64,000 nt of DNA from a virus (taxonomy: Duplodnaviria > Caudoviricetes): the IMG/VR virus record IMGVR_UViG_3300031867_005677, positions 1 through 64,000 of that record. The stretch is one strand, 5' to 3'. A program made the position numbers and the translations under genes. Below the pieces are notes generated by a model. It did not search any database. It had not been told where the DNA came from and saw nothing but the letters and a program-made list of their open reading frames with translations. Shown piece after piece: positions 16,950-64,000 of this stretch (position 1 is its first letter; the number at the start of each line of letters is the position of its first letter).

Positions 16950-17363
16950 ATGAAACAATTAAATAAATTTATACAAGAAAAATTAAAAATCAATTCTAAA
17001 ACCCAAATTAATAATACCGAAGAAGTTTGTAAATATATCTATAATAATTTATGGGGTATTACAGATGAAGATAAAGAAATGTATAGTGCTATTGAAAAAT
17101 GGGTAAAAGATAATGATGTAAATGAAGTAATTCCAATTGCCGACCAAGAATCTTTAAATGATGCATCAGAATTTATAGATGATGATATTATCAAACAATA
17201 TAAATCGGATATGAAATCAGTTGAAGATTGTGAAAGTGAATTAGAAAAGGCAGAAAATATTTACCATCATAGTAGTAGAGCAGAAAATATAGATATTATG
17301 TGTACGGATAATATGATTGCAATATTGGGTTGGTATGGTACTTTATATTGTGTTAAAAAATAA
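16950..17363 (+). CDS. putative head-packaged internal protein (CTS-like leader + KLKINS motif)
   Basis: Starts MKQLNKFIQE-KLKINSKTQIN. Confidence 0.55.
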   Translation: MKQLNKFIQEKLKINSKTQINNTEEVCKYIYNNLWGITDEDKEMYSAIEKWVKDNDVNEVIPIADQESLNDASEFIDDDIIKQYKSDMKSVEDCESELEKAENIYHHSSRAENIDIMCTDNMIAILGWYGTLYCVKK

Positions 17364-17375
17364 TGATTAATATAT

Positions 17376-18992
17376 ATGAACTTTTTAGAGTTTGTTTCAA
17401 AAAGAAAAGAAAATGAACAAAATAGAGTTATTATCAAAGAAGGATTTAAAAATTCTGATTTAGGTAAAGCACAAAAACTTATATTAAAGATGTTAAGAAA
17501 AAATACGGGTGAAACTATAATTTCACTTGGTAATTTTGAACTTGAAATAGGTAAAGAAGATTGTACATCTGAATTGTTTGTATGTGCTAAATCTAAAAAT
17601 CCTATTTGTTTTACATTGAATTGGCTTAATGATGGTAAATCATCCCAAATATATTCTATTTCTTTCTTTAAGAATATGAATGTATTTTTTGATGGTCGCG
17701 GTAAATCTGACTTGACTATTGAATCATTTGGTTGTTCTATTGCTTATCTTATACCTATTATCTCTTATATAGTTAATACTGGAGATTTTAATCTTCAAAA
17801 GAATGATGCTACTAAATTTGTAAAAGCTTTATTTGGTGCTAAAGTTCAAGAAGGAAAAATGTATGAATGTTATATTGGTGCATTAAAGTACTATATTATT
17901 GAAAATGTTAAAGAATCATTAATAAAAGAAACATTCATGCAAAATATTAAAGAAGGTTCATATGAAGATTTGTTAAAGTGGAAAAAAGAGAAAATGGCAG
18001 CTGCTAAAGAAGCCGATTCTCATAAAAAAGATTCTCCTGAAGCTAACCGATTAAGTAAAGATTTATGGAAAGAATATGAAGAGATAAAGAATGCTATTAA
18101 AGGTGGAGCTTCATCAGTAGAAGAAGTACAATTAGCATTACAAAAATCAGTTAATGTAGTGGTTAAAAATCTTGAAGGTGCAAGTAAAATAGAAGAAGAA
18201 ATTAATAAAATAAGGAAAGATCCTGAACAAGTATTTAAAGAAATGCGTAAATATGTAAAGATGGTTATAAAAGGAATTACACCATCTGTAATATTATGTG
18301 GTGCTCCTGGTGTTGGTAAAACATTTAAAGTAAAACAAGAGCTTAAAGCCGCAGGTTATCATGAAGGACATAATCTTTGCACTATTAAAGGTAAATGTAC
18401 CCCACGTGTTCTTTATACTACATTATTGGATTATAAGAAAAAAGGTGATATTGTAGTAATTGATGATGCCGATGGGTTAGTAGGTCCTAAAGCACCAGAA
18501 GATTGTATTAATATATTAAAAGCTGCTTTAGATTCAACAGAAGATGATGAAGGACGTTTAGTATCTTATGGAGTATCTGGTATTATTAGAGATGATGAAG
18601 GTATGGAATTACCTAAGAAGTTCTATTATAATGGTGGATGTATTGTTATAACTAATTATAATGCTGGACAATTAGATACTGCATTAAGAGGACGTTCATT
18701 TATACAAGATATTCATTTTACTGTAGAAGAAGTGTTACAAATTATCAAGAAACTTTTACCAGAACTTGATCCTGAACATCTTTCACCTAAAGCAAAAATG
18801 CAAGCATATGATTATCTTGTAAAACTTAATGAACAAAAATCTAAGATGGAAATATCATTACGTACATTTGGTATTTGTGCGAAGATATTTGAAGCTTGTA
18901 ATGATGATCCGGATTTTGATGATGCTGATGCTGAATCAATGGTAGAAGAACAAATGAAATTACAAGCTGATCGTGGTGGTAAAAAATATTAA
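17376..18992 (+). CDS. AAA+ family ATPase with long N-terminal extension
   Basis: Walker A GAPGVGKT, Walker B IVVIDDAD, INILKAALDS, ALRGRS. Confidence 0.85.
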   Translation: MNFLEFVSKRKENEQNRVIIKEGFKNSDLGKAQKLILKMLRKNTGETIISLGNFELEIGKEDCTSELFVCAKSKNPICFTLNWLNDGKSSQIYSISFFKNMNVFFDGRGKSDLTIESFGCSIAYLIPIISYIVNTGDFNLQKNDATKFVKALFGAKVQEGKMYECYIGALKYYIIENVKESLIKETFMQNIKEGSYEDLLKWKKEKMAAAKEADSHKKDSPEANRLSKDLWKEYEEIKNAIKGGASSVEEVQLALQKSVNVVVKNLEGASKIEEEINKIRKDPEQVFKEMRKYVKMVIKGITPSVILCGAPGVGKTFKVKQELKAAGYHEGHNLCTIKGKCTPRVLYTTLLDYKKKGDIVVIDDADGLVGPKAPEDCINILKAALDSTEDDEGRLVSYGVSGIIRDDEGMELPKKFYYNGGCIVITNYNAGQLDTALRGRSFIQDIHFTVEEVLQIIKKLLPELDPEHLSPKAKMQAYDYLVKLNEQKSKMEISLRTFGICAKIFEACNDDPDFDDADAESMVEEQMKLQADRGGKKY

Positions 18993-19010
18993 AATAATTA
19001 AATAATATAT

Positions 19011-19829
19011 ATGAAAAGTTTAATACAATATATTAATGAAAATATAATTAAAGAATCATTTGAATCTAATTCTTTATCTGAATTTATATCTTTATCAGAT
19101 AAAAAAGAATATGAAGATTATTTTAAATATGGTTTTAGAGTAATTTCTAAAATTACAGATACATATAATTTTAGTAAAAAACAAATAGCTAAAGGTATGA
19201 GTTTAGCTAATTGGAAAGAAGATTGGTTCTATTCAAAAGATAATAAAAAAGTATTTAATCAAGAAGAATTTTGTAATATTTTAAGATTATCAGATAAAGA
19301 CCTTAATGAAGCTAAATTAAAAGAAGTTGCAATTAAACAAAAAACGTGTATTTTCTTATTTACTGAAAATAATAACAGCAAAATAAATAAAATTATTGCT
19401 GCAATGATATTAAATCCAAAATATGGAAATGAAGCTGCAACTTATTTAAAAGAAATGGCTAAAGAAAAAGAAATAAGACAAGATAATAAATCTAATAATG
19501 ATAAATTAAGTTCAACTTGGAAAATTGATAGAGCAAATAAAGTAATTAAAGAATATAATAATAAAGCTTCTAAAGAACAAATTGATTTATTAAATGAAAC
19601 TGTAAAGAAATTAATGAAATATACCAATAGAGGTAAAACTGCTAAAGAAGAAGCTAAAGAATTTAATAATTCTAAATGGTATAGTGAAGAACAAGCTAAT
19701 ATAACTTATTATTTAATTACTTCCGAAACCGGTGAAGATTTTCTTAAAGTATTTAGTTGGACTGATAATTTAAATAATAAACAAAAAGATTATTTATCTG
19801 AAATAGTAGAAAAATTAAAAGTAAAATAA
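19011..19829 (+). CDS. putative internal protein (CTS-like leader)
   Basis: Starts MKSLIQYINE; ends IVEKLKVK. Confidence 0.5.
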   Translation: MKSLIQYINENIIKESFESNSLSEFISLSDKKEYEDYFKYGFRVISKITDTYNFSKKQIAKGMSLANWKEDWFYSKDNKKVFNQEEFCNILRLSDKDLNEAKLKEVAIKQKTCIFLFTENNNSKINKIIAAMILNPKYGNEAATYLKEMAKEKEIRQDNKSNNDKLSSTWKIDRANKVIKEYNNKASKEQIDLLNETVKKLMKYTNRGKTAKEEAKEFNNSKWYSEEQANITYYLITSETGEDFLKVFSWTDNLNNKQKDYLSEIVEKLKVK

Positions 19830-19842
19830 TAATATAAATAAT

Positions 19843-21042
19843 ATGAAAAGTTTATCTCAACAAGTTAATGAAGATTCTTATATTTCATTAGGTAATGTTT
19901 CAATGATTAATGAAGCATGGGGAGCAAAAAAACATTATGCAGATGAATTAGAAAAAATATTTGCAAATTATGAAAAAAAGAAAAATCCTAAACCTAAAAA
20001 GGGTCCATTTGGGAGAGGAGGATTTAGACCAGGTCATTCCCCAGAAGAAGTACTTGCAAAATATCCAATGGAAATATTAATTGATAAAGCTGGATATGAA
20101 CCAAAAGAAATTTCTAAAGAAGTTTGGGGTCCTAAAGGAAGAACCGAAAAGAAAGAATTTAGTAAAAATGATTATGGTTATTTTATTGCACAATTAATAG
20201 CTAGTGGAGAACTTAATAAAGAAAAAATGCTTAAATGGTGGAATGAATATGAAGATAAGATAGCCAAAGCAAAATGGCATGATCCAAAATTTATAGCTAA
20301 ACAAATTGACCCGGTAAAATGTTGGAATCCATATTATCCTAAAGATGATTCTATTGTTAATTCATTTGAAAAAAATCCAGCTAATATGTCTTATTATTTA
20401 AAGAGTGGAAATGGTTTATCTTATGATGAAAAAAAAGAATTAAGAGCTTTCTTAGAAGATCCAGCAAATCTTGAAGAATTAAAGGTGGCTATTAAAGGTG
20501 TTAAAAATTCAATTTTAAAAGCACGTCCTACATTTAAGACAGGTGCTATTAATCATCTTAAAGATATTATTAAAAATTGTGATTATTCTGGTGGTAATCT
20601 TGAAGATTTAATGGAAAAGGAATATCGAGATAGCCATAAATCATATTATCAGGGTGGTAATGATAGAGATTGTGAAGCATCTGCAATAATTGGTCTTATT
20701 ATGAAAGTTATTAATAAGATTTATGGATTTGAAGTTTGGTCATCAATTACATCTGATAAAGATGAATATGAAAATGAAATTATTAGTGCCCATATTAATG
20801 GTTTAAATAAAGAAGATCAAACATATGAACAATTTGTTGATGATGCAGATATTCTTAAATTTAAAATTAAGAAATTAGGTGTATCAAAGAAAAAAGAATC
20901 ATCATCAGTTCATAATTCTTCATTTACATCAAATTATAATTATGATTTTGAAGTAATTTGTACTAAAGGAGATGAAGAGATATTTCATGAAACAATAACT
21001 GATGTGACAATTGGTTCATATTTCTTCTCTGGTGGATGGTAA
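19843..21042 (+). CDS. putative internal protein (CTS-like leader)
   Basis: Starts MKSLSQQVNE, with a second site MINE-A; basic segment KKKNPKPKKGPFGRGG follows. Confidence 0.5.
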   Translation: MKSLSQQVNEDSYISLGNVSMINEAWGAKKHYADELEKIFANYEKKKNPKPKKGPFGRGGFRPGHSPEEVLAKYPMEILIDKAGYEPKEISKEVWGPKGRTEKKEFSKNDYGYFIAQLIASGELNKEKMLKWWNEYEDKIAKAKWHDPKFIAKQIDPVKCWNPYYPKDDSIVNSFEKNPANMSYYLKSGNGLSYDEKKELRAFLEDPANLEELKVAIKGVKNSILKARPTFKTGAINHLKDIIKNCDYSGGNLEDLMEKEYRDSHKSYYQGGNDRDCEASAIIGLIMKVINKIYGFEVWSSITSDKDEYENEIISAHINGLNKEDQTYEQFVDDADILKFKIKKLGVSKKKESSSVHNSSFTSNYNYDFEVICTKGDEEIFHETITDVTIGSYFFSGGW

Positions 21043-21066
21043 AATATTTGTGGATTAAATAATATA

Positions 21067-21095
21067 TAAAAAGACCAATCTTATTGGCCTTTTTT
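21067..21095 (+). terminator. intrinsic terminator
   Basis: AAAAAGACCAAT-CTT-ATTGGCCTTTTTT hairpin with T tract. Confidence 0.65.
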
Positions 21096-21115
21096 ATATG
21101 TGGTCATTTTAAGAT

Positions 21116-21129
21116 TTATTTTTAATAAA
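21116..21129 (+). promoter_or_regulatory. putative late promoter
   Basis: TTATTTTTAATAAA exact copy. Confidence 0.55.
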
Positions 21130-21186
21130 TAAAATATACAAAATTTAGCATAAAACTAATAAATGATTCAAAACATATAATATATT

Positions 21187-22002
21187 ATGGATTTTAAAGG
21201 AATATTTCAAGTATTGATAGATAATTATGGTTTATATGGTTTAGTGATAGCTATATGTTTAGTAGCTATTTGTGTTGCCATACCTGTAATGCTTAACAAA
21301 CAAAGTAAGAAAATGTCAAATGATTTTAACAAATTAGGAATAGATTTATCAAATGCATTACAAAAACAAAATGATGGATTAATTAATAAATTATCAGAAA
21401 CACAAGATAAATTATTAGAAAGTAATTTAAATATTATTAATAATCTATTAGATCAAAAAAATAAAATACATGGCACAGGATTAAATTTAAGAGACCAAGT
21501 ATCAATACCAATACAAAATAAAATCAATCATTTAAAAGATTTATATAGGGCAAATAGAGTTGGCGTGATAGAGTTCCATAATTCATTAGTAAATCTTAAT
21601 GGTCTACCATTTTTATGGTATGATTTGATTTATGAAAGTATTATGAAAGGTACTAAATCAATTTCAATTGAAACTAAAAATATGCCATTTAATATTCTTA
21701 CTCCAATTTTATTAGGAATTCAAAATGGTCGTGCAAAAGTATTTGATAATAAAGAAGTAGAAAAATTCTATAATCAATCATCTGTACTTTATGAATTCTG
21801 TGAAAGATTTGATGTACATGATCTTGTGATATGCCCATTATTAAATAGTGATAATGAATTAGTTGGATTACTTTCATTAGAATATTCTGATAAATATCCT
21901 TTAAATCCAGAATTATTAGATATAAATGATATTGAGGATGAAGCAAAAATAATATCGGCTTTATTAGAATTGAATAAACAAAAAAATAATGAAAATAAAT
22001 AA
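21187..22002 (+). CDS. holin-like membrane protein (single TMD + GAF-like domain, T4 gp t-type architecture)
   Basis: TMD GLYGLVIAICLVAICVAIPVML, coiled coil, then RANRVGVIEFHNS...WYDLIYE...CPL...LVGLLSLEY GAF-like core. Confidence 0.5.
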   Translation: MDFKGIFQVLIDNYGLYGLVIAICLVAICVAIPVMLNKQSKKMSNDFNKLGIDLSNALQKQNDGLINKLSETQDKLLESNLNIINNLLDQKNKIHGTGLNLRDQVSIPIQNKINHLKDLYRANRVGVIEFHNSLVNLNGLPFLWYDLIYESIMKGTKSISIETKNMPFNILTPILLGIQNGRAKVFDNKEVEKFYNQSSVLYEFCERFDVHDLVICPLLNSDNELVGLLSLEYSDKYPLNPELLDINDIEDEAKIISALLELNKQKNNENK

Positions 22003-22006
22003 ACTT

Positions 22007-22033
22007 AAGGATCTAGTCAACTAGGTCCTTTTT
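22007..22033 (+). terminator. intrinsic terminator
   Basis: AAGGATCTAG-TCAA-CTAGGTCCTT followed by T tract. Confidence 0.8.
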
Positions 22034-22037
22034 ATTT

Positions 22038-22051
22038 TTATTTTTAATAAA
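22038..22051 (+). promoter_or_regulatory. putative late promoter
   Basis: TTATTTTTAATAAA exact copy right after the terminator. Confidence 0.55.
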
Positions 22052-22068
22052 ATTATTTGTTTATTTAA

Positions 22069-22476
22069 ATGAAAAGTTTAGATACTTTTATATGTGAAAA
22101 TAATGAACAATCTTCATTAGGTAAGAAAATTCTTAAAGTAATAGATAATAATATTACACAAGCAATTATTAAAAGAACTGAAAATTGGGATGCTAACAAA
22201 TTTGAATGGTCACGTGATCCAATGTTCTTATTAATAACACCAGAAAAAACTAAAAAGGATAGTGAAGAAAAATTTAGAGATCTTGAATGGGCAAGAGATA
22301 AATACATTGATGCTTGGAGAGATAAAGTTAAAGGAACTATAGATAATTATAATGTTAAAAATGATGATGGTGATTATGAATATTGTGTATTAGGTATATT
22401 TGTGGATAGACAATTCTTCCCGATATCTTCATTAGATAATATGAATAAAATCATAGATTTATTAATTCAAAAATAA
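22069..22476 (+). CDS. putative internal protein (CTS-like leader)
   Basis: Starts MKSLDTFICE. Confidence 0.5.
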   Translation: MKSLDTFICENNEQSSLGKKILKVIDNNITQAIIKRTENWDANKFEWSRDPMFLLITPEKTKKDSEEKFRDLEWARDKYIDAWRDKVKGTIDNYNVKNDDGDYEYCVLGIFVDRQFFPISSLDNMNKIIDLLIQK

Positions 22477-22489
22477 TAGAGGCAATATT

Positions 22490-22921
22490 ATGGAAAGTTT
22501 AGAGAATATAAAGAACAATAATCAAGATTTATATGAGAAATTACAAAAATATAATTGTAAGATGACATATAATAATAAGGTTATCTATGAAGGTATTTAT
22601 AAAGAAGATATTGATTATGGAAAATATAATCAATCAAATATTGTTTGTGAATTTAATATAAATGATAATAAGGTATTATTACTTCTTAAGAATAATGAAA
22701 ATATAGATAAACTTAATAAACTTTTTGAAAATAAACAATTTAATGATATTTATAATGATGCTAAATTATTTAATAAAGCAATGAATTTAGCAAATAAACT
22801 CCCATTATATAATTTTGATAAAGAATTATTTGAAAATAATATCAATAAAGATATTAAGAAATATGGAATTAATTTCCAAAAAATTTATGAAAATTTAAAC
22901 ATCAATGAATACAATAAATAA
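22490..22921 (+). CDS. hypothetical protein
   Basis: Intact ORF, Asn/Lys-rich; no clear E10 leader. Confidence 0.6.
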   Translation: MESLENIKNNNQDLYEKLQKYNCKMTYNNKVIYEGIYKEDIDYGKYNQSNIVCEFNINDNKVLLLLKNNENIDKLNKLFENKQFNDIYNDAKLFNKAMNLANKLPLYNFDKELFENNINKDIKKYGINFQKIYENLNINEYNK

Positions 22922-23276
22922 TTTTATAATAGAAAAACTTAAGGTTAATTCTAAATCAAAAATTCATGATGAAGAATTTTATGAAAAGACTTCTACCGAT
23001 TTATTAGTTGAGATTCAAAATGAAGTTGATAAAGATGGAGAATATCATACTTATAGTTTTAAAGATGGCCAAAAGAAATTCAAGAAAGGATTTTTGACAT
23101 TCAATGAAGATGGTGAATATTTAACTATTATAGCTTTTAATACAGCTGAAGATTTTGCTAATATGCTTGGAGCAGATGAAGATGCATACAAACAATATGA
23201 AAATGTTAAAGTTGGTGGTTATATAGATTGGGGCGAAAATGATGGTTCAACTTCACAAATATTAAGAATTTGGTAA
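22905..23276 (+). CDS. putative internal protein (CTS-like leader + KLKVNS motif)
   Basis: Starts MNTINNFIIE-KLKVNSKSKIH. Confidence 0.55.
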   Translation: MNTINNFIIEKLKVNSKSKIHDEEFYEKTSTDLLVEIQNEVDKDGEYHTYSFKDGQKKFKKGFLTFNEDGEYLTIIAFNTAEDFANMLGADEDAYKQYENVKVGGYIDWGENDGSTSQILRIW

Positions 23277-23277
23277 T

Positions 23278-23637
23278 ATGAAAGATATAGATTATTTTAT
23301 ACAAGAAAAGCTTAAAGTTAATTCTAAATCAAAAATTAATAAAAATGAACCTTTAGAAGCAGATGAAATTGAAGGTCCTGAAACTCCTGGTAAAGATTAT
23401 TTTGATGAAGATGTAGTTATTATAGGTTGGCCATTTAAAGATAAAAATGACCAAAATTATAAAAAAACAAAAGAATATATTAGAAAAGAAGGATATTCAA
23501 TTTATAATGATTTAGAAGATATCGAAGATAAAGATATGTGGGATTATTTCTGTTATGCACAACATCCTAATGATGGATTTGAAATAAATTGTTATGTATA
23601 TGGTTCTGAAGGAGTAGAAGGTTATAGTGAAAAATAA
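23278..23637 (+). CDS. putative internal protein (CTS-like leader + KLKVNS motif)
   Basis: Starts MKDIDYFIQE-KLKVNSKSKIN. Confidence 0.55.
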   Translation: MKDIDYFIQEKLKVNSKSKINKNEPLEADEIEGPETPGKDYFDEDVVIIGWPFKDKNDQNYKKTKEYIRKEGYSIYNDLEDIEDKDMWDYFCYAQHPNDGFEINCYVYGSEGVEGYSEK

Positions 23638-23651
23638 TATTAATTTATAAT

Positions 23652-23846
23652 ATGAAAGATATAGTTACAAAAATATATGAATCTAATGAATGGAATCCTT
23701 CATTAAATTCTCATAAACAAGCATATAATAATTTTATCAAATGGTATGATAAATGCCTTAAACATATGAATAAAGAAGAAATACTTGATTTAATTGAATC
23801 TGCTATAAAAGAGATTGAAGATGATTCATTAGATATAATTAAATAA
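23652..23846 (+). CDS. putative internal protein (CTS-like leader)
   Basis: Starts MKDIVTKIYE. Confidence 0.5.
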   Translation: MKDIVTKIYESNEWNPSLNSHKQAYNNFIKWYDKCLKHMNKEEILDLIESAIKEIEDDSLDIIK

Positions 23847-23847
23847 T

Positions 23848-24291
23848 ATGAAAAAAATAAATGAATATATTTTAGAATCTAATAAATCTGTTAATATATT
23901 AATAGATAGAGAAAAAGTTAATAAATATAATTTTTCTCGTAAAGAATATGCATTAATTAAATATTTAATTGATAATAATGATTCTTTAAGATCAAGAATT
24001 TATGTAGTAGAAGGAAATAAAAAATCAAATATTGATGAAATCGAAGAATATAGAGATTTAATTCCTGAAGACGAAAGAGGTATATTGTTTGTTTATCAAG
24101 AATCTACTAGAATGGGAGCACCTAAAGAAGCTGTATTTTATAGTATTTCTAAAATAAAAGAAACTAAAGAAAAAGAAACTTTTGTATATTCTTATCATAC
24201 AGAAGGTAAATCTAAATATAAGTCTGCAATTATAACTATAACCGGTAATAATTCAGAATTAACTTTATCTGAAACAGATATTAAATATTAA
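23848..24291 (+). CDS. putative internal protein (CTS-like leader)
   Basis: Starts MKKINEYILE. Confidence 0.5.
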   Translation: MKKINEYILESNKSVNILIDREKVNKYNFSRKEYALIKYLIDNNDSLRSRIYVVEGNKKSNIDEIEEYRDLIPEDERGILFVYQESTRMGAPKEAVFYSISKIKETKEKETFVYSYHTEGKSKYKSAIITITGNNSELTLSETDIKY

Positions 24292-24311
24292 AGAATATAA
24301 TATTAATAATT

Positions 24312-24596
24312 ATGGAGAATATAGATAAGTTTATTAATAATGATCAAATAACGGAAGAATTAACATATGATGATGTAATTCAAAAGTTACAAGAGGCAAA
24401 AGAAGCTGGTACACCTATTGATGAAGGTATATTAGGTGCTATTGGAGGAGCTCTTCTTGGAGCATCATTTGGTCCTAAATTAGGTAATGCAATATGTGGG
24501 GCATTAGGTATTGATCCTAAAGGAGCTTTAGGTAGTCTTATGACTTCACGATTAGTTTTAGGATCTATTGGTGCTAAAATGGGATGGAAATTATAA
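24312..24596 (+). CDS. glycine-zipper membrane-active protein with acidic N-terminal propeptide
   Basis: Acidic leader (ITEE, IDE) followed by GILGAIGGALLGASFG...GALG...GALG...GSIG. Confidence 0.55.
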   Translation: MENIDKFINNDQITEELTYDDVIQKLQEAKEAGTPIDEGILGAIGGALLGASFGPKLGNAICGALGIDPKGALGSLMTSRLVLGSIGAKMGWKL

Positions 24597-24614
24597 TATA
24601 TTAAATACATAAAT

Positions 24615-44325: not shown

Positions 44326-44328
44326 AAC

Positions 44329-44727: not shown

Positions 44728-44729
44728 AA

Positions 44730-45511: not shown

Positions 45512-45532
45512 AGTTATCCTAAATTATTTTTA

Positions 45533-46198
45533 TTACATCAAATTATCAGTATACTTTGAATTAAATTCTTTAAAATTATTATACCAGAATTCAATCAACT
45601 TACGCTTCCATTTTACAGGAGCATAAAGCTTTGTGGTCTTAGCATGATTAAATGCCCATTTATAATTATCAAATTCATCAACAGGAATCCATTTTACTAA
45701 ATCAACTTCATTCTCCTCACCACCTTCTTTCTTTACATAATGAGGAATAATCTTACCAAGGAAAGCTGTATGACGAATTGTTACATTTCCGTTATTACAT
45801 TCCTCAGGTTCAGTCTCAACATGTACAACTTTTAAATCATCGGTATCAATTTGGAATCCACATTCTTCAAGCATTTCACGAGCTATACCTTCCTTTGAAT
45901 TCTCATATCTCTCGAGGAATCCACAAACAGCATTCCAACATCCTTGATAATCTGGTGTACCAGGTCCTCGTAAATTAGCAAGAATTGAATATTTACCATT
46001 TACAATAGCATATACAAATCCCGATACTGCACAAAAACGACCACTAAAAACTGTCTTAGGTTTGCCTTTACAAGTATAATGAACATAATCATTTTCATTA
46101 CTTGTGGTGTCAATAACATCTGCTGGTAGCCAAGCCTTATATGGGAAATTTTTACCGTACTTTTCCAAACGTTCTTTATTAGGTCCTGTAAAAATCAT
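45533..46198 (-). CDS. Nudix hydrolase
   Basis: Complete Nudix box GFLERYENSKEGIAREMLEECGF. Confidence 0.92.
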   Translation of the reverse strand: MIFTGPNKERLEKYGKNFPYKAWLPADVIDTTSNENDYVHYTCKGKPKTVFSGRFCAVSGFVYAIVNGKYSILANLRGPGTPDYQGCWNAVCGFLERYENSKEGIAREMLEECGFQIDTDDLKVVHVETEPEECNNGNVTIRHTAFLGKIIPHYVKKEGGEENEVDLVKWIPVDEFDNYKWAFNHAKTTKLYAPVKWKRKLIEFWYNNFKEFNSKYTDNLM

Positions 46199-46240
46199 AT
46201 TTTTATTATATTTTATTTATTCAATATTTAATATAGTTAA

Positions 46241-55204: not shown

Positions 55205-58200
55205 TTATTCTTCAATTCTAATATATGGGAATGACCTCCAAGATGTTGATTTACTTAATGGGTGTGCATGTTGTGATGGGTGGATTTCCCACATTTGTGA
55301 TGAACTATATTCTGTAGTTGTCCATAATGCATTAGAACCTAAACTAGTAAGTAAATCTACTTTACAATCTTCTGGATATCTATTTGCAATATCACTAAAT
55401 AAATTAGTAAGACGTTGGAAATTATAACTTAAGAAGAATACCTCGGCAAATGCTGGTATATACCAATCACCATAATTAGTTGATTTAGTCTTATATTTAT
55501 ATGCACAAGCACACATTGGTGAAAATCTTAAATTAGTATTATTTATAATATTTCCTGATTCATTAAACCAATTTGATATATTATGTTCATCTATATTACC
55601 ATTTTCATCCATAATACTATATTGTTCACCAAATGCTTTAATAATATTCATTGTATTTTCCCAACCATTCCAATCAGAAACAGAACTATTTTCATCTATT
55701 AAATTACTATTAAATGTATCATCATCATTCAATAGATTAACATTATATATATTTCCTGATGCTGATGCAGGATCATAATACCATCCTCTATCATTAGGAG
55801 CAGGCCATTTGAATTGTCCAGCTAAAGTTGCATCACCATAATTATTTGGATAAGAATTTTGGTAATTATGATAATCGGTTTGAGGATATATCATATTTTT
55901 AGTTAATGTATGTCCTTCATCACTATAACATATATATGGATAATTCTTTAATGTTGGTATATCAATATTATAGAATCCAAATGCTGGAACACTATTAGAA
56001 CTTTGTGAACCACTATTACTAAACTTGAATTCCCCATTATTATCTTTTACCGTTGATAACATTTTAAGGCCAATGTAAATAGAATACTTTTGTTCTGGTC
56101 CAAAATATCCATTGTTCAATATCTTAATTCCAATAGGTCTCCAACCTAAAGAAGGATCAACAATTTCTTTTGATTTAAATCTTTGTCCATTTTCATTTTC
56201 ATAAAGAATAGTAAAGTCAGAAATTGTATCTTTAATATCAAATGTTTCTTCTTCAATAATAGGTTCAATAATTTCAGGGTATTTAATATCTTGATATTTA
56301 TCTAATATTCTATATTGTGCTATAGCATTATGTAGTATATTATTTAATCCATTAATAGTATATTGTAATTTAATATTATAATATCCTGGAGCATATAAAT
56401 TATCAATATTATCATTTGTGATAATTGTCAAGTTAGTATTTGAATTAACATCATAAACACTATTAATATCATATATTCTTGATACTGTCCATTTATTATT
56501 CAAATCAATATTGAATTGATAATCATTATTATTGACTCCAACAATAACTAAATCATCTTTATTGAATTGATTATACCCATTAGCTTTCTTAATAACCATT
56601 CTATTAATTAAGAACTTATCAACACTATAATCATTATATACAATACGATATCCACCAATTATATGTTCTTTATCATGAATATTCAATAAATCAGCATCAG
56701 GATAAGATGCAATTGGGTATTGGGATATTGCTACTATATACCATTCTTTATCATCATGCATCAAATAATAATCATAAATAACATTATTTTCTTTTAATTG
56801 GTATTTGTAAGATAAATCAGAGTTAAAAAATGTTTGATATAATGATGTATAATCTGCATTAGGATCATATTGCATTTTACCATTATTTTTTAATGGAGCA
56901 GTTTGTGTGGTATTTATTTGATTTATAGAATACCAATATAAATCTACGGTAGTATGATCTACTCGGGTATTACCAAGTTTAGTATATAAATATTTGAATG
57001 CACGTCCATTATAACGATATAATGTATCAATTACTTCACCATTATTTATAATATCAAATTTGTTAATACTTCCTTCAATATCATCTAAAATTGGTAAATC
57101 ATATTCAATACCTTCATAAACCATATGATAATGAATTAATAAATTATTAATATTCATAGGTTCTAAAGGTATATTATCTCTATAAAATCTTATAGTTGAA
57201 TCAGGGTATTCTTCTACTATATCCCCTAAATAATTTCTCCAACCTTTGATTATATTATTTATTCCACCATTATAAGGAGACCATTCTTCCCAACTTTGGC
57301 CAATTGATAAACTATAATCTTCTAATTTTATAATATAATCTATACCACCCCATTCTTCAACATATATATCAAATATATGAATTCTATTATAATATTTAGT
57401 ATTATATGGAACTTTTAAAATGTTTGAATAATATTTCTTATAGAATTCATACATCTTATGTTGATCAGGGTTATTTGTACCATCATCAGTCTCTAATAAC
57501 TTATCTATAAATGTCAATAATTTATCATTATCTTCACTATCTTTACCTTTAAATAATGTATTAATTGTAACTAAATCTGGTTCATAGATAAATGAATTGA
57601 ATTTTAATGGAGACAATGATCTTAATTGTTTAAATGGATAATAAACACTATCATCTTTTGTAATTTCATATTTATATTCCAATCTACCTAAATCTAGATA
57701 AATATTTGGAGTAACAATTCTAAAATCATAATTAAACCATTTATCATTTACCATTAAACTTAATCTAAAATATGCCTTTTCATAATCAATATTATTATTT
57801 AATAACCTTGGTATTAATATAAAATTCATATAATATTGATTACTATTTTGGTAATAATTAAAGTTATTATCATCTACTAAATAAATAGTTTGAATATCAT
57901 ATCTATCTTTAGAATCTATCCTTATATATTTATCATAATATTTAATATAATTTTCATTAGATAAATCATCAGATTCCGAAAAATCAGATTTATAGAATTT
58001 TTCTTTATAAATATATCTATCTCCTAATTTAATATAATGACCTGATGGATCTTGATTAATTGTTGTAGCTGTTAATATAAGCTTACAATTAAAATAATAT
58101 TCAGAAATTTTTAAATAACGATTATCAATATAATCAGATAAATCTTGAATATCTTCATTCTTAACTATACTAAAATGAGTAGCATCAAATCTATTAGATA

Positions 58201-60805
58201 ATTTACCAGAATTTTCTCCAATCAATTCATAGAAATAATTCATTTTAACATAATTACCATATTTATCAATGAAATAATCACCTTTATCATTTTTTGAATA
58301 AAGTTTAGAATATCTATTATATCTATTATCATATGATAATGGTTTTAAATTTTTATATCTTTCAAAACTATAAAAATTTGCATTATCATAATCATCAGTT
58401 AATTCTACTATAGTACTATTATTCTTATATTTATAGAAGTAATTTATTTTAACATATTCTCCATCAATATATAAATATAAACCATTTGATTTCTTTTCAT
58501 ATTCATAATCATCATATGTTATTGTAATAGGTATAGTTACACAATTTTCATTAACATAATACAAATCTTCTATATTAGATGCATTATAATTACTAAATTC
58601 ATTAAATTTATCATCTATAATATGATTACTTTGCATAAATAATAGTCTATTTGTATCAGGGAATATAACACGGATATTATCTGATATTCTAGGTATATAA
58701 ATTGGATTATCTACAATTGTTGTAAATCCAATCGTAGACAATTTAGTAGTATTAGCATAGACTTTATGTGCTATAGAAGCTCGATTAATATTAATATGAA
58801 CAGGTAAGAAATATTGTTGATAATAATATTTAAGACAATCTAATTTAAGTGCCAATTCATTAAATATAAAATTATAATAAGGTTTATAGAATGTAATATC
58901 ATCTTTAACTACTTCTACATTCTTACTAAATAAATCTTCTAATTTTGGTTTACCTTCACCAATAAAAACATTATCATAATTTTGTTGATAGTTTTCATTA
59001 ATTTCTTTATTATCTAAAACTGTTAAAGATATATTATTCGTCTTATTGAAATATTTAAATGTTTCTTTAATATCATTATTAATATCAAAATAATCTAATA
59101 CAAATTGATTTTGGAATTCATTATCTGTTTTTATAAGTTGACTAATGGCAATATGGTTTTTCCAACCAAACCATTTTAATGAATTCATCATTGATTTAAA
59201 ATTACCAGTTTCGCCTTTAATATTCATATAATTTAAAAGCAATTCTTTTAACTTATTCTTCAATAATTTTTCATCTGCATTTTTTGAATAAAATGATGAA
59301 CTATAAATAGCTTTAAGAATTTCTTTAGGTAAACGTATACCCATATTCTTACCATTTATAATTAATTCTTCACATTCATCTATAAATGTACAACCAACAG
59401 TGATTGGTGTAAATATATTTGCTAATTCATACTCTGTTGTTGTAATTGTCTTACCTTCAGTATTTTCAGCAATTTGTCTATTATCTACATCTAACCAAAA
59501 ATCACGAGTTTTCCCCAAATAAACTGGTGTTTGCCTAATAGTATAACCAATAATATTACCTTTAGAATCACGATAATTATAAGGTTTCCAAATATAATTT
59601 GTTTCACCATTAATTGTTTGAGGTTCATATTGTGCATTAATTTCTAATAAGTGTTGAACATGATATTTATCTTCATTATTTACATATTGTTCATCTCCTG
59701 GATAAGTACTTTGGCAAAATTCATAATAATCAGAACCATATTCTGTTTCATCATCATCATCCATTTCTATATAACCTTCATGGTTAGTACATAAAACAGA
59801 TCCACAATAGTTACACCCATCATATATTTCACCTTCAAATACATACCAACCGGCAGGAAGTTCATTCTCTAATCTATAAATATAATGGTATGAATCAGTA
59901 AACATATTACCAAATAATTGCCAATTACCATTATTATCTTGTGACAAGAAATTCCTTATACGTTTATATTGATTTGCTTGTTCTGGAGCATCTTTATCAT
60001 ATGCTGTTGATAGAATATTATTTGTTCTTACATATTGTACATAAGGATCTCCACTATATAATATTTCATGTTTATTAAATCCAGCATTAAGCCCTTGTGT
60101 ATATTTTTCATTATTAAAACCTACATTAATTACTAATACTGGTGATGATGACTTTGTTTGAGTAGCAATATCATAACTATAAATTTTAATAGGGCTTAAT
60201 GATTGTTTAATTATATAATCATAATATTCTTCACGAGTATAATGTTTAGTAATAATTTTTGAAGTTTCTTTTTGATATGTATACTTAATAGTAATATTAT
60301 TTAAAAATGTACCTTCTATTTCAGAAAACCCAACAACATAAAATGGAAACATATAGAATTTATTATTAGTGGTATTTGAAGAAACTACAAGATTAATATT
60401 ATCTTCATTGGAATTAGCTCCTTCAATATCAAAATAAAAATCATCTAAGGTCAACTTATCTACAAATTGAGACTTATCTAAACCTACTGGCTTAGAAATA
60501 CTATCTGATTGTTCTAATTGAGATTGTAAATATTTAGGACTTATAAGTTTATAGAATTGAGAACTATTCGAAATCTCTAATGAAAAATATGATTTAATTT
60601 CATCGTTATCATCAGTATATATACTATCTTTTATAAATTTTGCATCTAATAAAAATCTAACTGGTTTAATATAATAATTATTTATTGATACTGATGAATC
60701 TTTTAACCAGAATATATAATCTCCTTCAACATATTCTAAGTTAATAGGTTTATCTTCATAAGAAGGTAAGCTAAAAATATGACCTGTACTGTCTATAAAT
60801 TCCAT
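55205..60805 (-). CDS. large baseplate/tail protein (gp7/gpI-like wedge segment) with C-terminal CLec/DUF1566-like module
   Basis: LLNYMNIKGETGNFKSMMNSLKWFGW (about 59160-59230); C-terminus GDWYIPAFAEV...LWTTTEYSSSQMWEI; late-type motif upstream. Confidence 0.6.
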   Translation of the reverse strand: MEFIDSTGHIFSLPSYEDKPINLEYVEGDYIFWLKDSSVSINNYYIKPVRFLLDAKFIKDSIYTDDNDEIKSYFSLEISNSSQFYKLISPKYLQSQLEQSDSISKPVGLDKSQFVDKLTLDDFYFDIEGANSNEDNINLVVSSNTTNNKFYMFPFYVVGFSEIEGTFLNNITIKYTYQKETSKIITKHYTREEYYDYIIKQSLSPIKIYSYDIATQTKSSSPVLVINVGFNNEKYTQGLNAGFNKHEILYSGDPYVQYVRTNNILSTAYDKDAPEQANQYKRIRNFLSQDNNGNWQLFGNMFTDSYHYIYRLENELPAGWYVFEGEIYDGCNYCGSVLCTNHEGYIEMDDDDETEYGSDYYEFCQSTYPGDEQYVNNEDKYHVQHLLEINAQYEPQTINGETNYIWKPYNYRDSKGNIIGYTIRQTPVYLGKTRDFWLDVDNRQIAENTEGKTITTTEYELANIFTPITVGCTFIDECEELIINGKNMGIRLPKEILKAIYSSSFYSKNADEKLLKNKLKELLLNYMNIKGETGNFKSMMNSLKWFGWKNHIAISQLIKTDNEFQNQFVLDYFDINNDIKETFKYFNKTNNISLTVLDNKEINENYQQNYDNVFIGEGKPKLEDLFSKNVEVVKDDITFYKPYYNFIFNELALKLDCLKYYYQQYFLPVHININRASIAHKVYANTTKLSTIGFTTIVDNPIYIPRISDNIRVIFPDTNRLLFMQSNHIIDDKFNEFSNYNASNIEDLYYVNENCVTIPITITYDDYEYEKKSNGLYLYIDGEYVKINYFYKYKNNSTIVELTDDYDNANFYSFERYKNLKPLSYDNRYNRYSKLYSKNDKGDYFIDKYGNYVKMNYFYELIGENSGKLSNRFDATHFSIVKNEDIQDLSDYIDNRYLKISEYYFNCKLILTATTINQDPSGHYIKLGDRYIYKEKFYKSDFSESDDLSNENYIKYYDKYIRIDSKDRYDIQTIYLVDDNNFNYYQNSNQYYMNFILIPRLLNNNIDYEKAYFRLSLMVNDKWFNYDFRIVTPNIYLDLGRLEYKYEITKDDSVYYPFKQLRSLSPLKFNSFIYEPDLVTINTLFKGKDSEDNDKLLTFIDKLLETDDGTNNPDQHKMYEFYKKYYSNILKVPYNTKYYNRIHIFDIYVEEWGGIDYIIKLEDYSLSIGQSWEEWSPYNGGINNIIKGWRNYLGDIVEEYPDSTIRFYRDNIPLEPMNINNLLIHYHMVYEGIEYDLPILDDIEGSINKFDIINNGEVIDTLYRYNGRAFKYLYTKLGNTRVDHTTVDLYWYSINQINTTQTAPLKNNGKMQYDPNADYTSLYQTFFNSDLSYKYQLKENNVIYDYYLMHDDKEWYIVAISQYPIASYPDADLLNIHDKEHIIGGYRIVYNDYSVDKFLINRMVIKKANGYNQFNKDDLVIVGVNNNDYQFNIDLNNKWTVSRIYDINSVYDVNSNTNLTIITNDNIDNLYAPGYYNIKLQYTINGLNNILHNAIAQYRILDKYQDIKYPEIIEPIIEEETFDIKDTISDFTILYENENGQRFKSKEIVDPSLGWRPIGIKILNNGYFGPEQKYSIYIGLKMLSTVKDNNGEFKFSNSGSQSSNSVPAFGFYNIDIPTLKNYPYICYSDEGHTLTKNMIYPQTDYHNYQNSYPNNYGDATLAGQFKWPAPNDRGWYYDPASASGNIYNVNLLNDDDTFNSNLIDENSSVSDWNGWENTMNIIKAFGEQYSIMDENGNIDEHNISNWFNESGNIINNTNLRFSPMCACAYKYKTKSTNYGDWYIPAFAEVFFLSYNFQRLTNLFSDIANRYPEDCKVDLLTSLGSNALWTTTEYSSSQMWEIHPSQHAHPLSKSTSWRSFPYIRIEE

Positions 60806-60823: not shown

Positions 60824-60837
60824 TTTAATAAAAATAA
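60824..60837 (-). promoter_or_regulatory. putative late promoter (back to back with variant TTATTTTTAAATATAAA at 60848-60864 +)
   Basis: TTATTTTTATTAAA on the minus strand. Confidence 0.5.
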
Positions 60838-60880
60838 GACTATAAAATTATTTTTAAATATAAATTGATAATAATATTTT

Positions 60881-61795
60881 ATGAAAAGCTTCAAACAAAC
60901 ATATTTTGTTGAAAATGTTAATACTATAAATGGTTTTGTTATTCTAAAACCAGAATTTCTAGATCATGAAGAAGACTTTCTAAAACTTCTTAAAAATAAT
61001 GGATGGGATATTATTCAAAAACAAAAAAGAACTCTATCTAATGATGAAGCAGCAGAACTTTATAAAATGCATAAGGATAAAGATTTCTATAAGCCTTTAT
61101 GCAAATATATGAGTTCTGGTGATTGTCTTTGTTGTATGTGTCATAAAGATTGTAATGATCCTATTAAAGATATGGATGCTATTAAAGACAAGGTTCGTAA
61201 GACATGGGGAAAAGATGAAATGAAAAATGGTATGCATTCATCAGATAGCTTAGATAATGTCAATCGTGAATCTAAACTTATATTTGAAAAGAAAGTTGTA
61301 GAATCTGAAAGTGATGATTTGCAAATAAAAATGGAAGCATCAGAAATCAAAACATTAGTAGAAATGTTAAAGAATGCATTAGCTGAAGAAATATTAGCTT
61401 GGTATCATTATACAATATGTGCTCCATTCTTGACAGGTAAAATGCGTCCGGATGTGGAGAAACTATTTATAGAAACTGCTAAAGATGAATTTGAAGATCA
61501 TGCTTGTTGGTTAATGGAAAGACTTCGTCAATTGGGAGAAGATCCAGGAGAATTATTAGATCCAAATCAGATGAATACTATTGCAAAACATAAATATATC
61601 ATGCCTTCATTTGATACTAAGAAAGCTATTCAAAATAATATTGAAGCGGAAAAGGGAGCTATAGAGACTTATACAGAATTAGAAACATTCACTAAAGACA
61701 AAGATATAGTAACACATGCTAAAATAGAAGAGATATTAGCTGATGAACAAGAACATCTTAAATTATTAAATAAATTAGCTGAAGATATAAAATGA
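60881..61795 (+). CDS. nucleoside diphosphate kinase fused to DPSL/bacterioferritin-like domain
   Basis: NDK: FVILKPE, HKDKDFY..L..YMSSG, KNGMHSSDS (His119). Ferritin-like: ALAEEILAWYHY, DEFEDH, EAEKGAI, KDIVTH, ILADEQEH. Confidence 0.88.
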   Translation: MKSFKQTYFVENVNTINGFVILKPEFLDHEEDFLKLLKNNGWDIIQKQKRTLSNDEAAELYKMHKDKDFYKPLCKYMSSGDCLCCMCHKDCNDPIKDMDAIKDKVRKTWGKDEMKNGMHSSDSLDNVNRESKLIFEKKVVESESDDLQIKMEASEIKTLVEMLKNALAEEILAWYHYTICAPFLTGKMRPDVEKLFIETAKDEFEDHACWLMERLRQLGEDPGELLDPNQMNTIAKHKYIMPSFDTKKAIQNNIEAEKGAIETYTELETFTKDKDIVTHAKIEEILADEQEHLKLLNKLAEDIK

Positions 61796-62325
61796 AAAAT
61801 CTAAAAGATATAATTATTGAGAAGTTAAAAATCAATTCTAATTCTAAAGTTAATAATAAATTTGACCCAGAAAGATTAACTGATCATAGATTTGTTTTAT
61901 ATGATTCTCAATCTTATGAAAATGAAGATGATGAAGCGGTTGATTGGAAAGATTGTGAAGATTCTTTAATGTCTTATAATGACCAAGCCGCTGGTTTTAT
62001 TACATGTGATAACCCAATATCTAAAATTAAAAATTATAGTAAAGATATAAGTTTAATTGATGAGGATTTATTGTCATTAAGAGAAAGAATTATTACCGGT
62101 AAAGATCTTGGTTATGAAATTAGATATGAATATGGGCATTTAGAATTTGATTGTATTAATTCTGGTTCTAGACGTACATTCTATATTTATGGATTACCCA
62201 AAAATGCTTATGATAAAATAATTACTTGGTGGGAATCTCCAGATGAATTAGAAGGAGACACTGATGAAGAAAAATTAGCTTTCTTATTTGAAGAAGGAAA
62301 TATAATAGCAATTGAAGATAAATGA
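61792..62325 (+). CDS. putative internal protein (CTS-like leader + KLKINS motif)
   Basis: Starts MKNLKDIIIE-KLKINSNSKVN. Confidence 0.55.
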   Translation: MKNLKDIIIEKLKINSNSKVNNKFDPERLTDHRFVLYDSQSYENEDDEAVDWKDCEDSLMSYNDQAAGFITCDNPISKIKNYSKDISLIDEDLLSLRERIITGKDLGYEIRYEYGHLEFDCINSGSRRTFYIYGLPKNAYDKIITWWESPDELEGDTDEEKLAFLFEEGNIIAIEDK

Positions 62326-63197
62326 AAACTTTAAAAGAAATTATTTTAATATCTAAAAAGCCATCATCTATAGATAATTATATACAAGAAAAACTCAAAA
62401 TTGGATCAAAGACAAAGGTAAATATGTATACTTGTCAACCAAAAGATAAAAATGAACTTAAAAGTATAATAAAAGAACGTCTAGATAAAGATAAGAATGC
62501 TGACTTAAATGATATAGATGTATCTAAAATAAATGATATGTCTACTTTATTTAATCAATTAGATCCTCACAATATAGACTTAAGTGAATGGGATGTATCT
62601 AATGTTATTGATATGAATGAAATGTTTTTAGGATGTGATAATTTTAATTGTGATTTATCTAAATGGGATATATCAAAAGTCAAATGTATGATAAGTATGT
62701 TTAGATACTGTGAAAATTTTAATGGTGATATATCTAAATGGGATGTATCTAATGTTACTGATATGAGTAATATATTTAATAATTGTGAAAAATTTAATTG
62801 TGATTTATCTAAGTGGGATGTATCAAATGTTACTAATATGAAATGTATGTTTTTCCATTGTAATAATTTCAATTTTGACTTAAGTGAATGGGATGTATCT
62901 AATGTTACTGATATGAATGAAATGTTTTTTGGGTGTAATAATTTTAATTCAGATTTAAGTGAATGGGATGTATCTAATGTTACTAATATGAGTGATATGT
63001 TTGGTAATTGTGAAAAATTTAATTGTGATTTATCTAAGTGGGATGTATCAAATGTTACTAATATGAAATGTATGTTTTATAATTGTAATAATTTTAATTC
63101 TGACTTAAGTAATTGGGATGTTTCAAATGTTAAAAATATGTATTTTATGTTTGATGGGTGTAAATCACTAAAAAATAAACCAAGTTGGTACAAATGA
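62322..63197 (+). CDS. DUF285 / BspA-type repeat protein with CTS-like leader
   Basis: Eight 25-aa WD[VI]S[NK]V..M..[MI]F..C..FN.DLS units; leader MKTLKEIILI...NYIQE-KLKIGSKTKVN. Confidence 0.85.
   Translation: MKTLKEIILISKKPSSIDNYIQEKLKIGSKTKVNMYTCQPKDKNELKSIIKERLDKDKNADLNDIDVSKINDMSTLFNQLDPHNIDLSEWDVSNVIDMNEMFLGCDNFNCDLSKWDISKVKCMISMFRYCENFNGDISKWDVSNVTDMSNIFNNCEKFNCDLSKWDVSNVTNMKCMFFHCNNFNFDLSEWDVSNVTDMNEMFFGCNNFNSDLSEWDVSNVTNMSDMFGNCEKFNCDLSKWDVSNVTNMKCMFYNCNNFNSDLSNWDVSNVKNMYFMFDGCKSLKNKPSWYK
62575..63170 (+). repeat. 75-bp in-frame tandem repeats
   Basis: Includes an about 70-bp identical direct repeat at 62781 and 63006 (225 bp = 3 units apart). Confidence 0.9.
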
Positions 63198-63658
63198 AAA
63201 CTTTAAAAGAAATAATCATTGAAAAATTAAAAATTTCTTCTAATTCTAAAGTTATTGGTGAATTAGATAATTTTGATAATTTTGCCAAAGAATATGATGG
63301 TGAATATTCTGAAGGAGTAATTTTATTTAATGAAGATAGTCTTTTTTATAAGAAAGCTATAGATATTATATCAAAAAGATATAGTGGATTTAAATCAAGA
63401 TTAATTTGTGATAGAATAGCAGGTAATTCAATGACAAAAAAATATAGATATTATGTTTCAATATTCACATCACAAAGAATAAATGTATCATGTGTTGACA
63501 GAGGTCAGGCAAAATCAGTATCATTTATGATGATTCAAAATATGGAATCCGATAAACAAATTAAATTAACTTATGGTGTTAACGATCCTGATGAATCTAT
63601 AGAGAAAACCTATGTAAATATAATACTTAATAATATCATCAATGGAAAATTTGATTAA
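63194..63658 (+). CDS. putative internal protein (start revised to ATG 63194)
   Basis: Starts MKTLKEIIIE-KLKISSNSKVI; ATGA overlap with the previous stop. Confidence 0.55.
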   Translation: MKTLKEIIIEKLKISSNSKVIGELDNFDNFAKEYDGEYSEGVILFNEDSLFYKKAIDIISKRYSGFKSRLICDRIAGNSMTKKYRYYVSIFTSQRINVSCVDRGQAKSVSFMMIQNMESDKQIKLTYGVNDPDESIEKTYVNIILNNIINGKFD

Positions 63659-64000
63659 TATAATTGAAAAATTAAAAATTAGTTCAAAAACAAAAGTATC
63701 TACAGAAATAGAAATGGAAACAATAGATGATTTATGTAAAAAATATAATTGTGAATTCCATCATGATTCAACTAATGATACTTTTAATTATAATTATTTA
63801 ACTCATGATAATAAACAAATAACACTTATAATTGAAGATATAATAAAATATTCATGGACAGCTTGGAAACAATTAATTCAAAATACCGAAAAATATATTG
63901 ATAAATTTAATGATAACCAAAAATATCAATTAAAGATTAGAAAAAACAATGATGCTAAATTAATTGTTATTGATTGTGAAGGAAAATTAAATAATAAATA
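63642..64000 (+). CDS. putative internal protein, 3' truncated by window edge (absent from ORF track)
   Basis: Starts MENLINIIE-KLKISSKTKVS and stays open to the window end. Confidence 0.55.
   Translation, partial: MENLINIIEKLKISSKTKVSTEIEMETIDDLCKKYNCEFHHDSTNDTFNYNYLTHDNKQITLIIEDIIKYSWTAWKQLIQNTEKYIDKFNDNQKYQLKIRKNNDAKLIVIDCEGKLNNK

Follow-up and report, generated by a model that had tools for sequence, protein, structure and literature searches.

A short N-terminal tag shared by unrelated proteins of a bovine-gut jumbo phage, a candidate head-loading signal of the T4 kind

Tagged genes of the contig

The DNA considered here (the window) is a stretch of 64,000 nucleotides at the start of a viral contig of 75,989 bp (IMG/VR record IMGVR_UViG_3300031867_005677; G000), with about 25% G+C and a completeness of 27% as estimated by CheckV. 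Examination of its plus strand revealed a series of genes whose products begin with the same short sequence, called the tag below, in front of bodies that otherwise differ. The original prediction had described the tag as a T4-like capsid-targeting leader with Glu at residue 10, carried by eleven genes. All eleven are present where they had been placed and have Glu-10 in the expected pattern, and the three near-matches listed with them are also as described, with Glu at 11 (60881), Glu at 9 (63642) and a doubled leader (62322). The window is closely followed by two additional full matches, which start at 64138 and 64817 of the contig (Table 1).

Over the whole contig, the pattern M-[KN]-x-[LI]-x-x-x-[IVF]-x-E starts 13 of the 31 plus-strand genes and none of the 61 minus-strand genes, when about 0.04 such N-termini would be expected from amino-acid composition. 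Inside proteins, the pattern is no more frequent than composition predicts. Counting all its forms, the tag is found on about half of the structural-strand genes. The predicted absence of the pattern from the minus strand holds on this contig, but not in the relative G001 (81.7 kb, core proteins 66% identical), where one tagged gene lies on the opposite strand. Similarly, the bodies are unrelated by BLAST, as had been claimed, except for three DUF285 paralogs (62322, contig 64138 and contig 64817). Leu-12 is encoded by TTA, CTT, CTC and CTA, and synonymous codons are also used at other tag positions; because synonymous codons vary at conserved tag residues, selection acts on the peptide and not on the RNA.

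Table 1. Tagged genes and other features of the window and of the remainder of the contig (positions are those of the window unless marked as contig positions).
Position	Strand	Feature	Match or basis
16950-17363	+	Tagged, long form, 137 residues, acidic body	Homologs P0010, P0076 and P0190 retain the tag
19011-19829	+	Tagged, short form, 272 residues, basic body	Without Pfam, PHROG or ESM Atlas match
19843-21042	+	Tagged, short form plus second hydrophobic-N-E site at 22-24, 399 residues	56 homologs
22069-22476	+	Tagged, short form, 135 residues	N-terminus
22905-23276	+	Tagged, long form, 123 residues, acidic body	Family of 8
23278-23637	+	Tagged, long form, 119 residues, acidic body	N-terminus
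23652-23846	+	Tagged, short form, 64 residues	N-terminus
23848-24291	+	Tagged, short form, 147 residues	N-terminus
24312-24596	+	Degenerate tag (Asn for Glu-10), 94 residues, doubtful member	Without family match
24615-25784	+	Tagged, short form, 389 residues, mostly long helices	58 homologs, down to 40% identity
60881-61795	+	NDK and ferritin-like fusion, near-match	Pfam NDK 2e-18, Ferritin 1e-13
61792-62325	+	Tagged, long form, 177 residues, net charge -18	Alignment and AF2 model
62322-63197	+	DUF285/BspA repeat protein, doubled tag: broken unit, then full unit (long form)	PF03382, E 2e-93
63194-63658	+	Tagged, long form, 154 residues	Family of 13
63642-64000, on to contig 64136	+	Tagged, Glu at 9, long-form-type continuation	N-terminus
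contig 64138-64830	+	Tagged, long form, DUF285; follows the 63642 gene	PF03382, E 4e-47
contig 64817-65359	+	Tagged, long form, DUF285; follows the 63642 gene	PF03382, E 7e-20
14903-15244	+	gp25-like gene, upstream of the tagged array	gp25-like match in PTm1
15244-16926	+	gp6-like baseplate wedge, directly upstream of the tagged array	phrog_219, E 2e-21
17376-18992	+	AAA+ ATPase, 538 residues	Pfam AAA; phrog_1250 (function unknown)
11181-14900		Baseplate-operon protein, 1239 residues, upstream of the gp25-like and gp6-like genes	InlB B-repeat-like domain (PF18998)
6269-6712, 7598-8404, 43297-47209, 48291-49631	-	Metabolic genes	NadD-type cytidylyltransferase-like, NUDIX, NAD synthase, IMPDH/GMP-reductase-like, dCMP deaminase, ADP-ribosylglycohydrolase
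55205-60805	-	Giant open frame, 1866 residues	No Pfam or PHROG match
contig 66680-75145		Giant open frame, 2821 residues	No Pfam or PHROG match

Two forms of the tag

The tag comes as a short and as a long form (Table 1). The short form, present in six genes, consists of the first ten residues only, with a small polar residue after Glu-10. The long form, present in nine genes, extends over 20 residues with the continuation E-[KR]-L-K-[ILV]-x-[SK]-x-[ST]-K-[IV]. The leader of ten residues originally proposed is a good description of the short form, but most tags have 20 residues and their best-conserved part comes after the proposed cut.

Among 240 tags, positions 1, 2, 4, 7, 8, 10-16, 18 and 19 carry much information and positions 3, 6 and 9 little, and the background level is reached after residue 20. 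Position 4 is Leu or Ile in 98% of these tags and position 7 is Phe, Ile or Tyr in 98%; Ile-8 occurs in 95% and Glu-10 in 100%, a fit to a cleavage motif at the sequence level. All 13 contig genes fit the hydrophobic positions 4 and 7. An alignment of the family of the 61792 protein, whose members are 72-90% identical, has residues 2-9 as the most variable of the protein and residues 10-20 as invariant. The same leader variants as in this family recur on unrelated bodies, which hints at exchange between tags.

The AlphaFold2 (AF2) model of the 61792 protein has a helix at residues 4-13, disorder to about residue 49 and a folded body at residues 50-177. For the 24615 protein, the tag is modelled as a detached helix of low confidence (residues 4-10), carried on a low-confidence tether apart from the folded body.

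Bodies of the tagged proteins

A search of the cargo bodies against Pfam and PHROGs allowed us to recognise DUF285 and NDK/ferritin, and nothing else. The three DUF285 proteins match PF03382 above its curated cut-off. In the NDK-ferritin fusion, whose second domain is ferritin/rubrerythrin-like, an 18-residue tag-like extension with Glu at 11 forms the N-terminus, and the counterparts in G001 (56151-57176) and in a further relative, G006 (NDK, L058:832-1596, minus strand), have a leader-like extension ending in hydrophobic-x-E. The bodies are often very acidic, with net charges down to -18, and some are basic. The doubtful member at 24312 has an acidic first part ending in I-D-E and a glycine-rich hydrophobic C-terminal half.

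Foldseek searches of the PDB with the AF2 models of the 61792 and 24615 proteins gave nothing at E <= 0.001, and no usable match for the 19843 or 19011 proteins was found in the ESM Atlas. None of these searches linked a cargo body to a known anti-defence family (Pfam and PHROGs) or fold (PDB, with the two AF2 models).

Distribution in public sequence data

A profile built from 18 long tags recovered 167 proteins in a word-index search and, in an exhaustive search of 1.84 billion representatives, at least 363 clusters (50% identity) at E <= 0.001. Almost all matches lie at residues 1-40. The bodies of 152 tagged proteins form 43 BLAST clusters that have only the leader in common, the commonest body being DUF285/BspA (38 of 152). 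Doubled tags were found in 12 proteins of metagenome relatives, on several different bodies, and hydrophobic-x-E, with K-L-K after it, recurs at the end of their second unit. The same profile had no match in PAU, PTm1, pT24, MA9V-2, Lak-B5, LR756500 or LR756501. Two DNA-pattern matches in giant-virus bins (L052, L054) were rejected, as they do not resemble real tags.

The relative G001 bears 11 long and three short tags and keeps the gene order gp25-like, gp6-like, AAA+ ATPase. Apart from the DUF285 members, G000 and G001 have no cargo bodies in common that BLAST can detect. Both giant open frames of G000 are kept in G001, and the 1866-residue frame is kept in part in G006.

Near-identical DNA is contained in bovine gut metagenomes of many studies. 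Contigs from three bovine-gut DNA runs and one RNA run cover positions 16950-25784 in a fragmentary, mixed-strain manner and were used for habitat only. Neither the 20-residue tag consensus nor the tagged protein P0072 had a tblastn match among 50,697 phage records, so close relatives are not among these records; close homologs sit on public contigs of 213-533 kb, those on contigs of 213-439 kb being 88-92% identical. The source is an uncultured jumbo ("giant") phage of the cattle gut.

Junctions in the conserved families

Two of the short-form proteins belong to families with members throughout the clade. Extensions of 4 to 29 residues occur in the 19843 family, and in 51 of 51 sequences their hydrophobic-x-Glu end adjoins the conserved body; the 24615 family has extensions of 10-34 residues, with the same junction in 54 of 55. 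Taken together, 105 of 106 sequences have the motif at the junction, at the end of extensions of 4-34 residues. Such a rule would be expected of a removable propeptide that ends at a protease site, and is indirect support for one. Since both families are conserved across the clade, the 19843 and 24615 proteins look like core head components and not like variable effectors. In this respect, the two families call for a correction to the injected set of effectors that had been proposed.

The AAA+ ATPase has a similar junction. Its N-terminal extension, variable and about 22 residues long, closes with I-K-E, L-N-E or I-N-E before a conserved [GA]-F-K-x-S-D in the three phages compared, and for this reason the ATPase itself may be a processed head protein. 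Its orthologs are 67% (G001) and 45% (G003) identical, and its gene stands directly before tagged genes in G000, G001 and G003. No homolog of it was found in PAU.

Lineage and gene content of the contig

The gp6-like wedge gave tblastn matches at 24-31% identity in PAU, in the Tenacibaculum phages pT24 and PTm1, and in Chryseobacterium phages, Lak phages and huge uncultured phages. Based on these matches, the contig belongs to a jumbo myovirus within the wider T4-like assemblage, of whose genome it is a fragment. A gp21-type prohead protease has been described for this assemblage, there called group 2.2 (PMC7824862).

Plus-strand blocks contain baseplate, connector and adaptor genes, and minus-strand blocks contain helicases, dCMP deaminase, NAD-related and nucleotide enzymes, an IMPDH-like enzyme and an ADP-ribosylglycohydrolase. 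The tagged strand is presumably the late strand, judging from this gene content; neither a T4-like late promoter word nor a local candidate word was enriched in the AT-rich DNA of the contig. Stop codons are used in an ordinary way (79 TAA, 10 TGA and 2 TAG). A radical-SAM enzyme was also considered as a modifying partner and rejected, as no PF04055 domain was found on five tag-bearing contigs (272 kb in total).

Head genes of relatives

Peptidase_S77 was found neither on G000 nor on G001, both of which are fragments of 27-29% completeness. Further IMG/VR contigs bearing the tag were found with a DNA pattern for it, and one of them, G006 (IMGVR_UViG_3300012979_000140), combines nine tag matches with a head module. 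Its helicase and adaptor-like protein are 57% and 64% identical to those of the window. The head module consists, in order, of a 540-residue Peptidase_S77, a tagged gene of 110 residues and a Gp23-family capsid gene. The place of the tagged gene is that of gene 22 in T4 and of the scaffolding and internal capsid genes in PAU. The capsid protein has I-H-E before a Gly-rich stretch, to be compared with L-T-E in T4 gp23. The G006 protease (L059:5713-7335) has a C-terminal extension of about 350 residues, in which an acidic Pro-rich linker precedes eight repeats of 12 residues (type W-V-x-E-E-F-A-P-E-V-Q) that all contain V-x-E; from its sequence, this extension looks like a fused, self-digestible scaffold.

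Both PAU and PTm1 have a Peptidase_S77. In PAU, a Sphingomonas phage (GenBank JQ362498), about 20 genes start with M-K-[ST]-[LI]-[ST]-x-L-[YF]-E, a 9-residue leader (e.g. 106051-113735), and ten of these genes are located in the stretch from the portal to the capsid gene. The leader is carried by gp152, annotated in the record as the scaffolding protein, by gp142 and gp154, annotated as internal capsid proteins, and by about 17 others; several leaders are followed by a second site, K-L-N-E. The annotation of gp142 and gp154 comes nearest to evidence that such proteins reside inside a virion. The capsid protein of PAU, a member of the gp23 family, loses about 65 of its 585 residues to leave 520 (PMC5646251).

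Comparison with known systems

The T4 record (NC_000866) bears out the leader MKTYQEFIAE that the original prediction had attributed to IPII and IPIII. Other T4 leaders read from it are those of IPI (19 residues, ending I-T-E), gp24 (10 residues, ending L-R-E) and gp22 (9 residues, ending I-A-E). Window tags agree with the IPII/IPIII leader at up to six of ten residues. In IPIII, the N-terminal ten residues are enough for loading; targeting depends on residues 4 and 7, and processing on residues 8 and 10 (Mullaney and Black 1996, reported in PMC9026906). The conserved positions 4, 7, 8 and 10 of the tag are those mapped as essential in T4. T-even internal proteins are a diverse set with only the capsid-targeting sequence in common (PMC3012670), so the principle was already known, and in T4 it is textbook knowledge.

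Likeness to the system of IPI/II/III, Alt, gp24 and gp22 thus includes a leader of 10 residues in which positions 4 and 7 are hydrophobic and positions 8-10 read [IL]-x-E, its presence on unrelated proteins, and, for the short tags as for gp24, a small polar residue after Glu-10. The leader is removed by the gp21 prohead protease in T4, and the present lineage has Peptidase_S77 and a gp23-type capsid. The first difference from T4 is one of scale, with at least 15 genes on a quarter of the genome and at least 363 clusters, compared with a handful in T4. Secondly, most tags extend to 20 residues, the putative cut being followed by an invariant E-[KR]-L-K-hydrophobic segment, and tags can be doubled. 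Finally, the cargo includes DUF285/BspA proteins and possibly enzymes, and many bodies are acidic rather than basic.

PAU, a cultured relative whose wedge is 29% identical, also has one short hydrophobic-x-E leader on about 20 unrelated small proteins, together with a gp21-type protease and a processed gp23-type capsid protein. Its leader differs in having 9 residues and often a second L-N-E site in place of the K-L-K-I-N-S-K-S-K segment.

Ejection and inner-body proteins of phiKZ, 201phi2-1 and SPN3US are likewise loaded by means of propeptides that a gp21-related protease cuts after Glu ([SA]-x-E) (PMC5694885). Their propeptides, of mostly 80-130 residues, differ in that no one short tag is shared and that Ala or Ser occupies P3, and these phages belong to another lineage. 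In encapsulins and in the Dar system of phage P1, a portable peptide or an adaptor decides the cargo of an HK97-fold shell, and the proteins packaged by P1 act against restriction. The tags of encapsulins differ in being C-terminal and uncleaved, and the Dar proteins in being incorporated by ordered protein-protein contacts with no common leader.

Our literature search, which included tag strings, found no paper describing the 20-residue bipartite tag, its scale of 363 clusters, doubled tags, DUF285 cargo or the PAU leader family.

A putative head-loading propeptide

Taken together, these comparisons make it rather likely that the tag serves as a head-loading propeptide, like the capsid-targeting sequence of T4, and is cut by a gp21-type protease. 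Residues 2-13 would form an amphipathic helix whose hydrophobic face (positions 4, 7 and 8, and in the long form also 12 and 14) would bind the scaffolding core during prohead assembly, and any protein bearing the tag would therefore be enclosed. The gp21-type (Peptidase_S77) protease would then cut after hydrophobic-x-Glu at positions 8-10, or at a second such motif further in, freeing the body inside the head, from which it would leave with the DNA at infection. In the long form, the invariant E-[KR]-L-K-hydrophobic segment would lengthen the helix, and a cut at Glu-10 would leave a Lys-rich end on the mature protein. What the sequences show is the tag with its statistics and modular spread, its agreement with the positions mapped in T4, the protease and capsid genes of relatives, and the junction rule; binding, cutting, residence in the head, ejection and any anti-defence role are inferred. 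The T4-type loading system of the original prediction finds support in the positions mapped in T4, the unrelated bodies, the protease and gp23 lineage and the PAU leaders; the contig itself, only about 27% of a genome, has no protease or capsid gene.

Three kinds of cargo can be distinguished under the propeptide interpretation. The 19843 and 24615 families, perhaps with the AAA+ ATPase, are probably clade-wide structural or core components of the head interior. The second kind is a fast-changing set of small, often very acidic proteins. The third consists of the DUF285/BspA repeat proteins, candidates for binding to targets in the host.

Several observations weigh against this interpretation. 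The most serious concerns the long form, in which residues 11-20, after the proposed cut, are better conserved than residues 2-9; conservation past the cut is not what a plain removable propeptide would predict. Lys or Arg directly after the cut is also absent from the T4 sites that were read, and with its basic residue, which would follow the scissile bond, the long form is the weakest point of the reading. The continuation may extend the helix, the long form may stay uncut, or the Lys-rich remainder may have a later function. Some of the cargo is also odd for a phage head, namely the NDK-ferritin fusion and a HAD-type phosphatase in G006, and DUF285/BspA repeats are usually found on surface proteins. 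Tagged genes on the opposite strand also occur, one in G001 and several in G006. The cultured relative PTm1 has the protease but essentially none of these leaders. Finally, no protease, scaffold or capsid gene was found on the contig, a fragment estimated at about 27% of its genome.

Alternative explanations

The main rival, which we consider unlikely, is that the tag is an intracellular recognition or sorting signal: a handle for a chaperone or unfoldase such as the AAA+ ATPase, a localisation or degradation signal, or a site for an enzyme that acts on many substrates to modify them. Such a signal would account for residues 11-20, beyond the putative cut, being best conserved, for metabolic enzymes with the tag or a close variant of it (the NDK-ferritin fusion and the G006 HAD phosphatase), and for the position of the AAA+ ATPase gene directly before tagged genes in three contigs. 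It does not account for the match of the first ten residues to the targeting and cutting positions mapped in T4, nor for the G006 tagged gene that lies between protease and capsid gene. The ATPase itself has the junction signature of a propeptide, and PAU has its approximately 20 leaders, including those of scaffold and internal capsid proteins, with no homolog of the ATPase.

An extension of the propeptide interpretation, quite unlikely in our view, is a two-part address in which residues 1-10 load the protein and are cut off at Glu-10, and the Lys-rich rest (of the K-L-K-I-N-S-K-S-K type) is a new N-terminus active after ejection. The remainder could act as an N-end-rule timer, the exposed Lys or Arg marking the injected protein for degradation by the host, or alternatively as a DNA-bound tether setting the order of exit. 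Were such an address real, the effectors that jumbo phages of the rumen deliver would number hundreds of families, interchangeable and self-limiting, among them a diversified library of DUF285 repeat binders.

Very unlikely, in turn, is a docking helix that fixes interchangeable proteins to the outside of the virion (baseplate, tail fibres, neck or head fibres), the DUF285/BspA proteins then being alternative host binders. The main array does follow the baseplate wedge genes directly, DUF285/BspA proteins are typical surface binders as well as the commonest tagged body (38 of 152), and odd appendages are known from relatives, namely the head fibres of PTm1 and the mop of tail fibres of PAU (PMC7824862). 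On the other hand, dozens of small unrelated proteins, often very acidic, would have to compete for one site, and the variable extensions end in a protease motif (105 of 106). The PAU leader is carried by scaffolding and internal capsid proteins, with half of the leader genes in the head module, and the G006 tagged gene lies between protease and capsid gene; PTm1, the relative with head fibres, lacks the leaders.

Lastly, the tag could be a mere remnant of gene duplication in fast-diverging paralogs, or a favoured translation start, with no sorting role, and the tandem genes, often overlapping by a few bases, and a very AT-rich genome in which Lys-, Asn- and Ile-rich starts are common would suit this; it is nonetheless extremely improbable, because the bodies are unrelated while the tag is kept in 363 clusters and conservation drops sharply after residue 20, and the choice among synonymous codons varies at conserved residues, the 61 minus-strand genes of this equally AT-rich DNA are all untagged, and tag units are duplicated as units on different bodies.

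Implications

Head-loading propeptides of the T4 capsid-targeting kind on so many bodies would mean that a large exchangeable set of proteins is delivered with the DNA, as the sequences suggest. Should the tag function as its T4 counterpart does, its bearers would be at work in the host before expression of the first phage gene, and in this clade of rumen jumbo phages they would amount to hundreds of families of unknown function. Candidate early effectors and anti-defence proteins could then be picked out by a simple rule at the sequence level. The T4 loading principle would then extend to distant, uncultured and very AT-rich phages of Bacteroidota-type hosts, with the cultured phage PAU as a similar system ready for experiment. 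A second, longer tag would also become available for packaging foreign proteins into phage heads, and the segment conserved past the putative cut raises the question of how loading, cutting and later fate are encoded.

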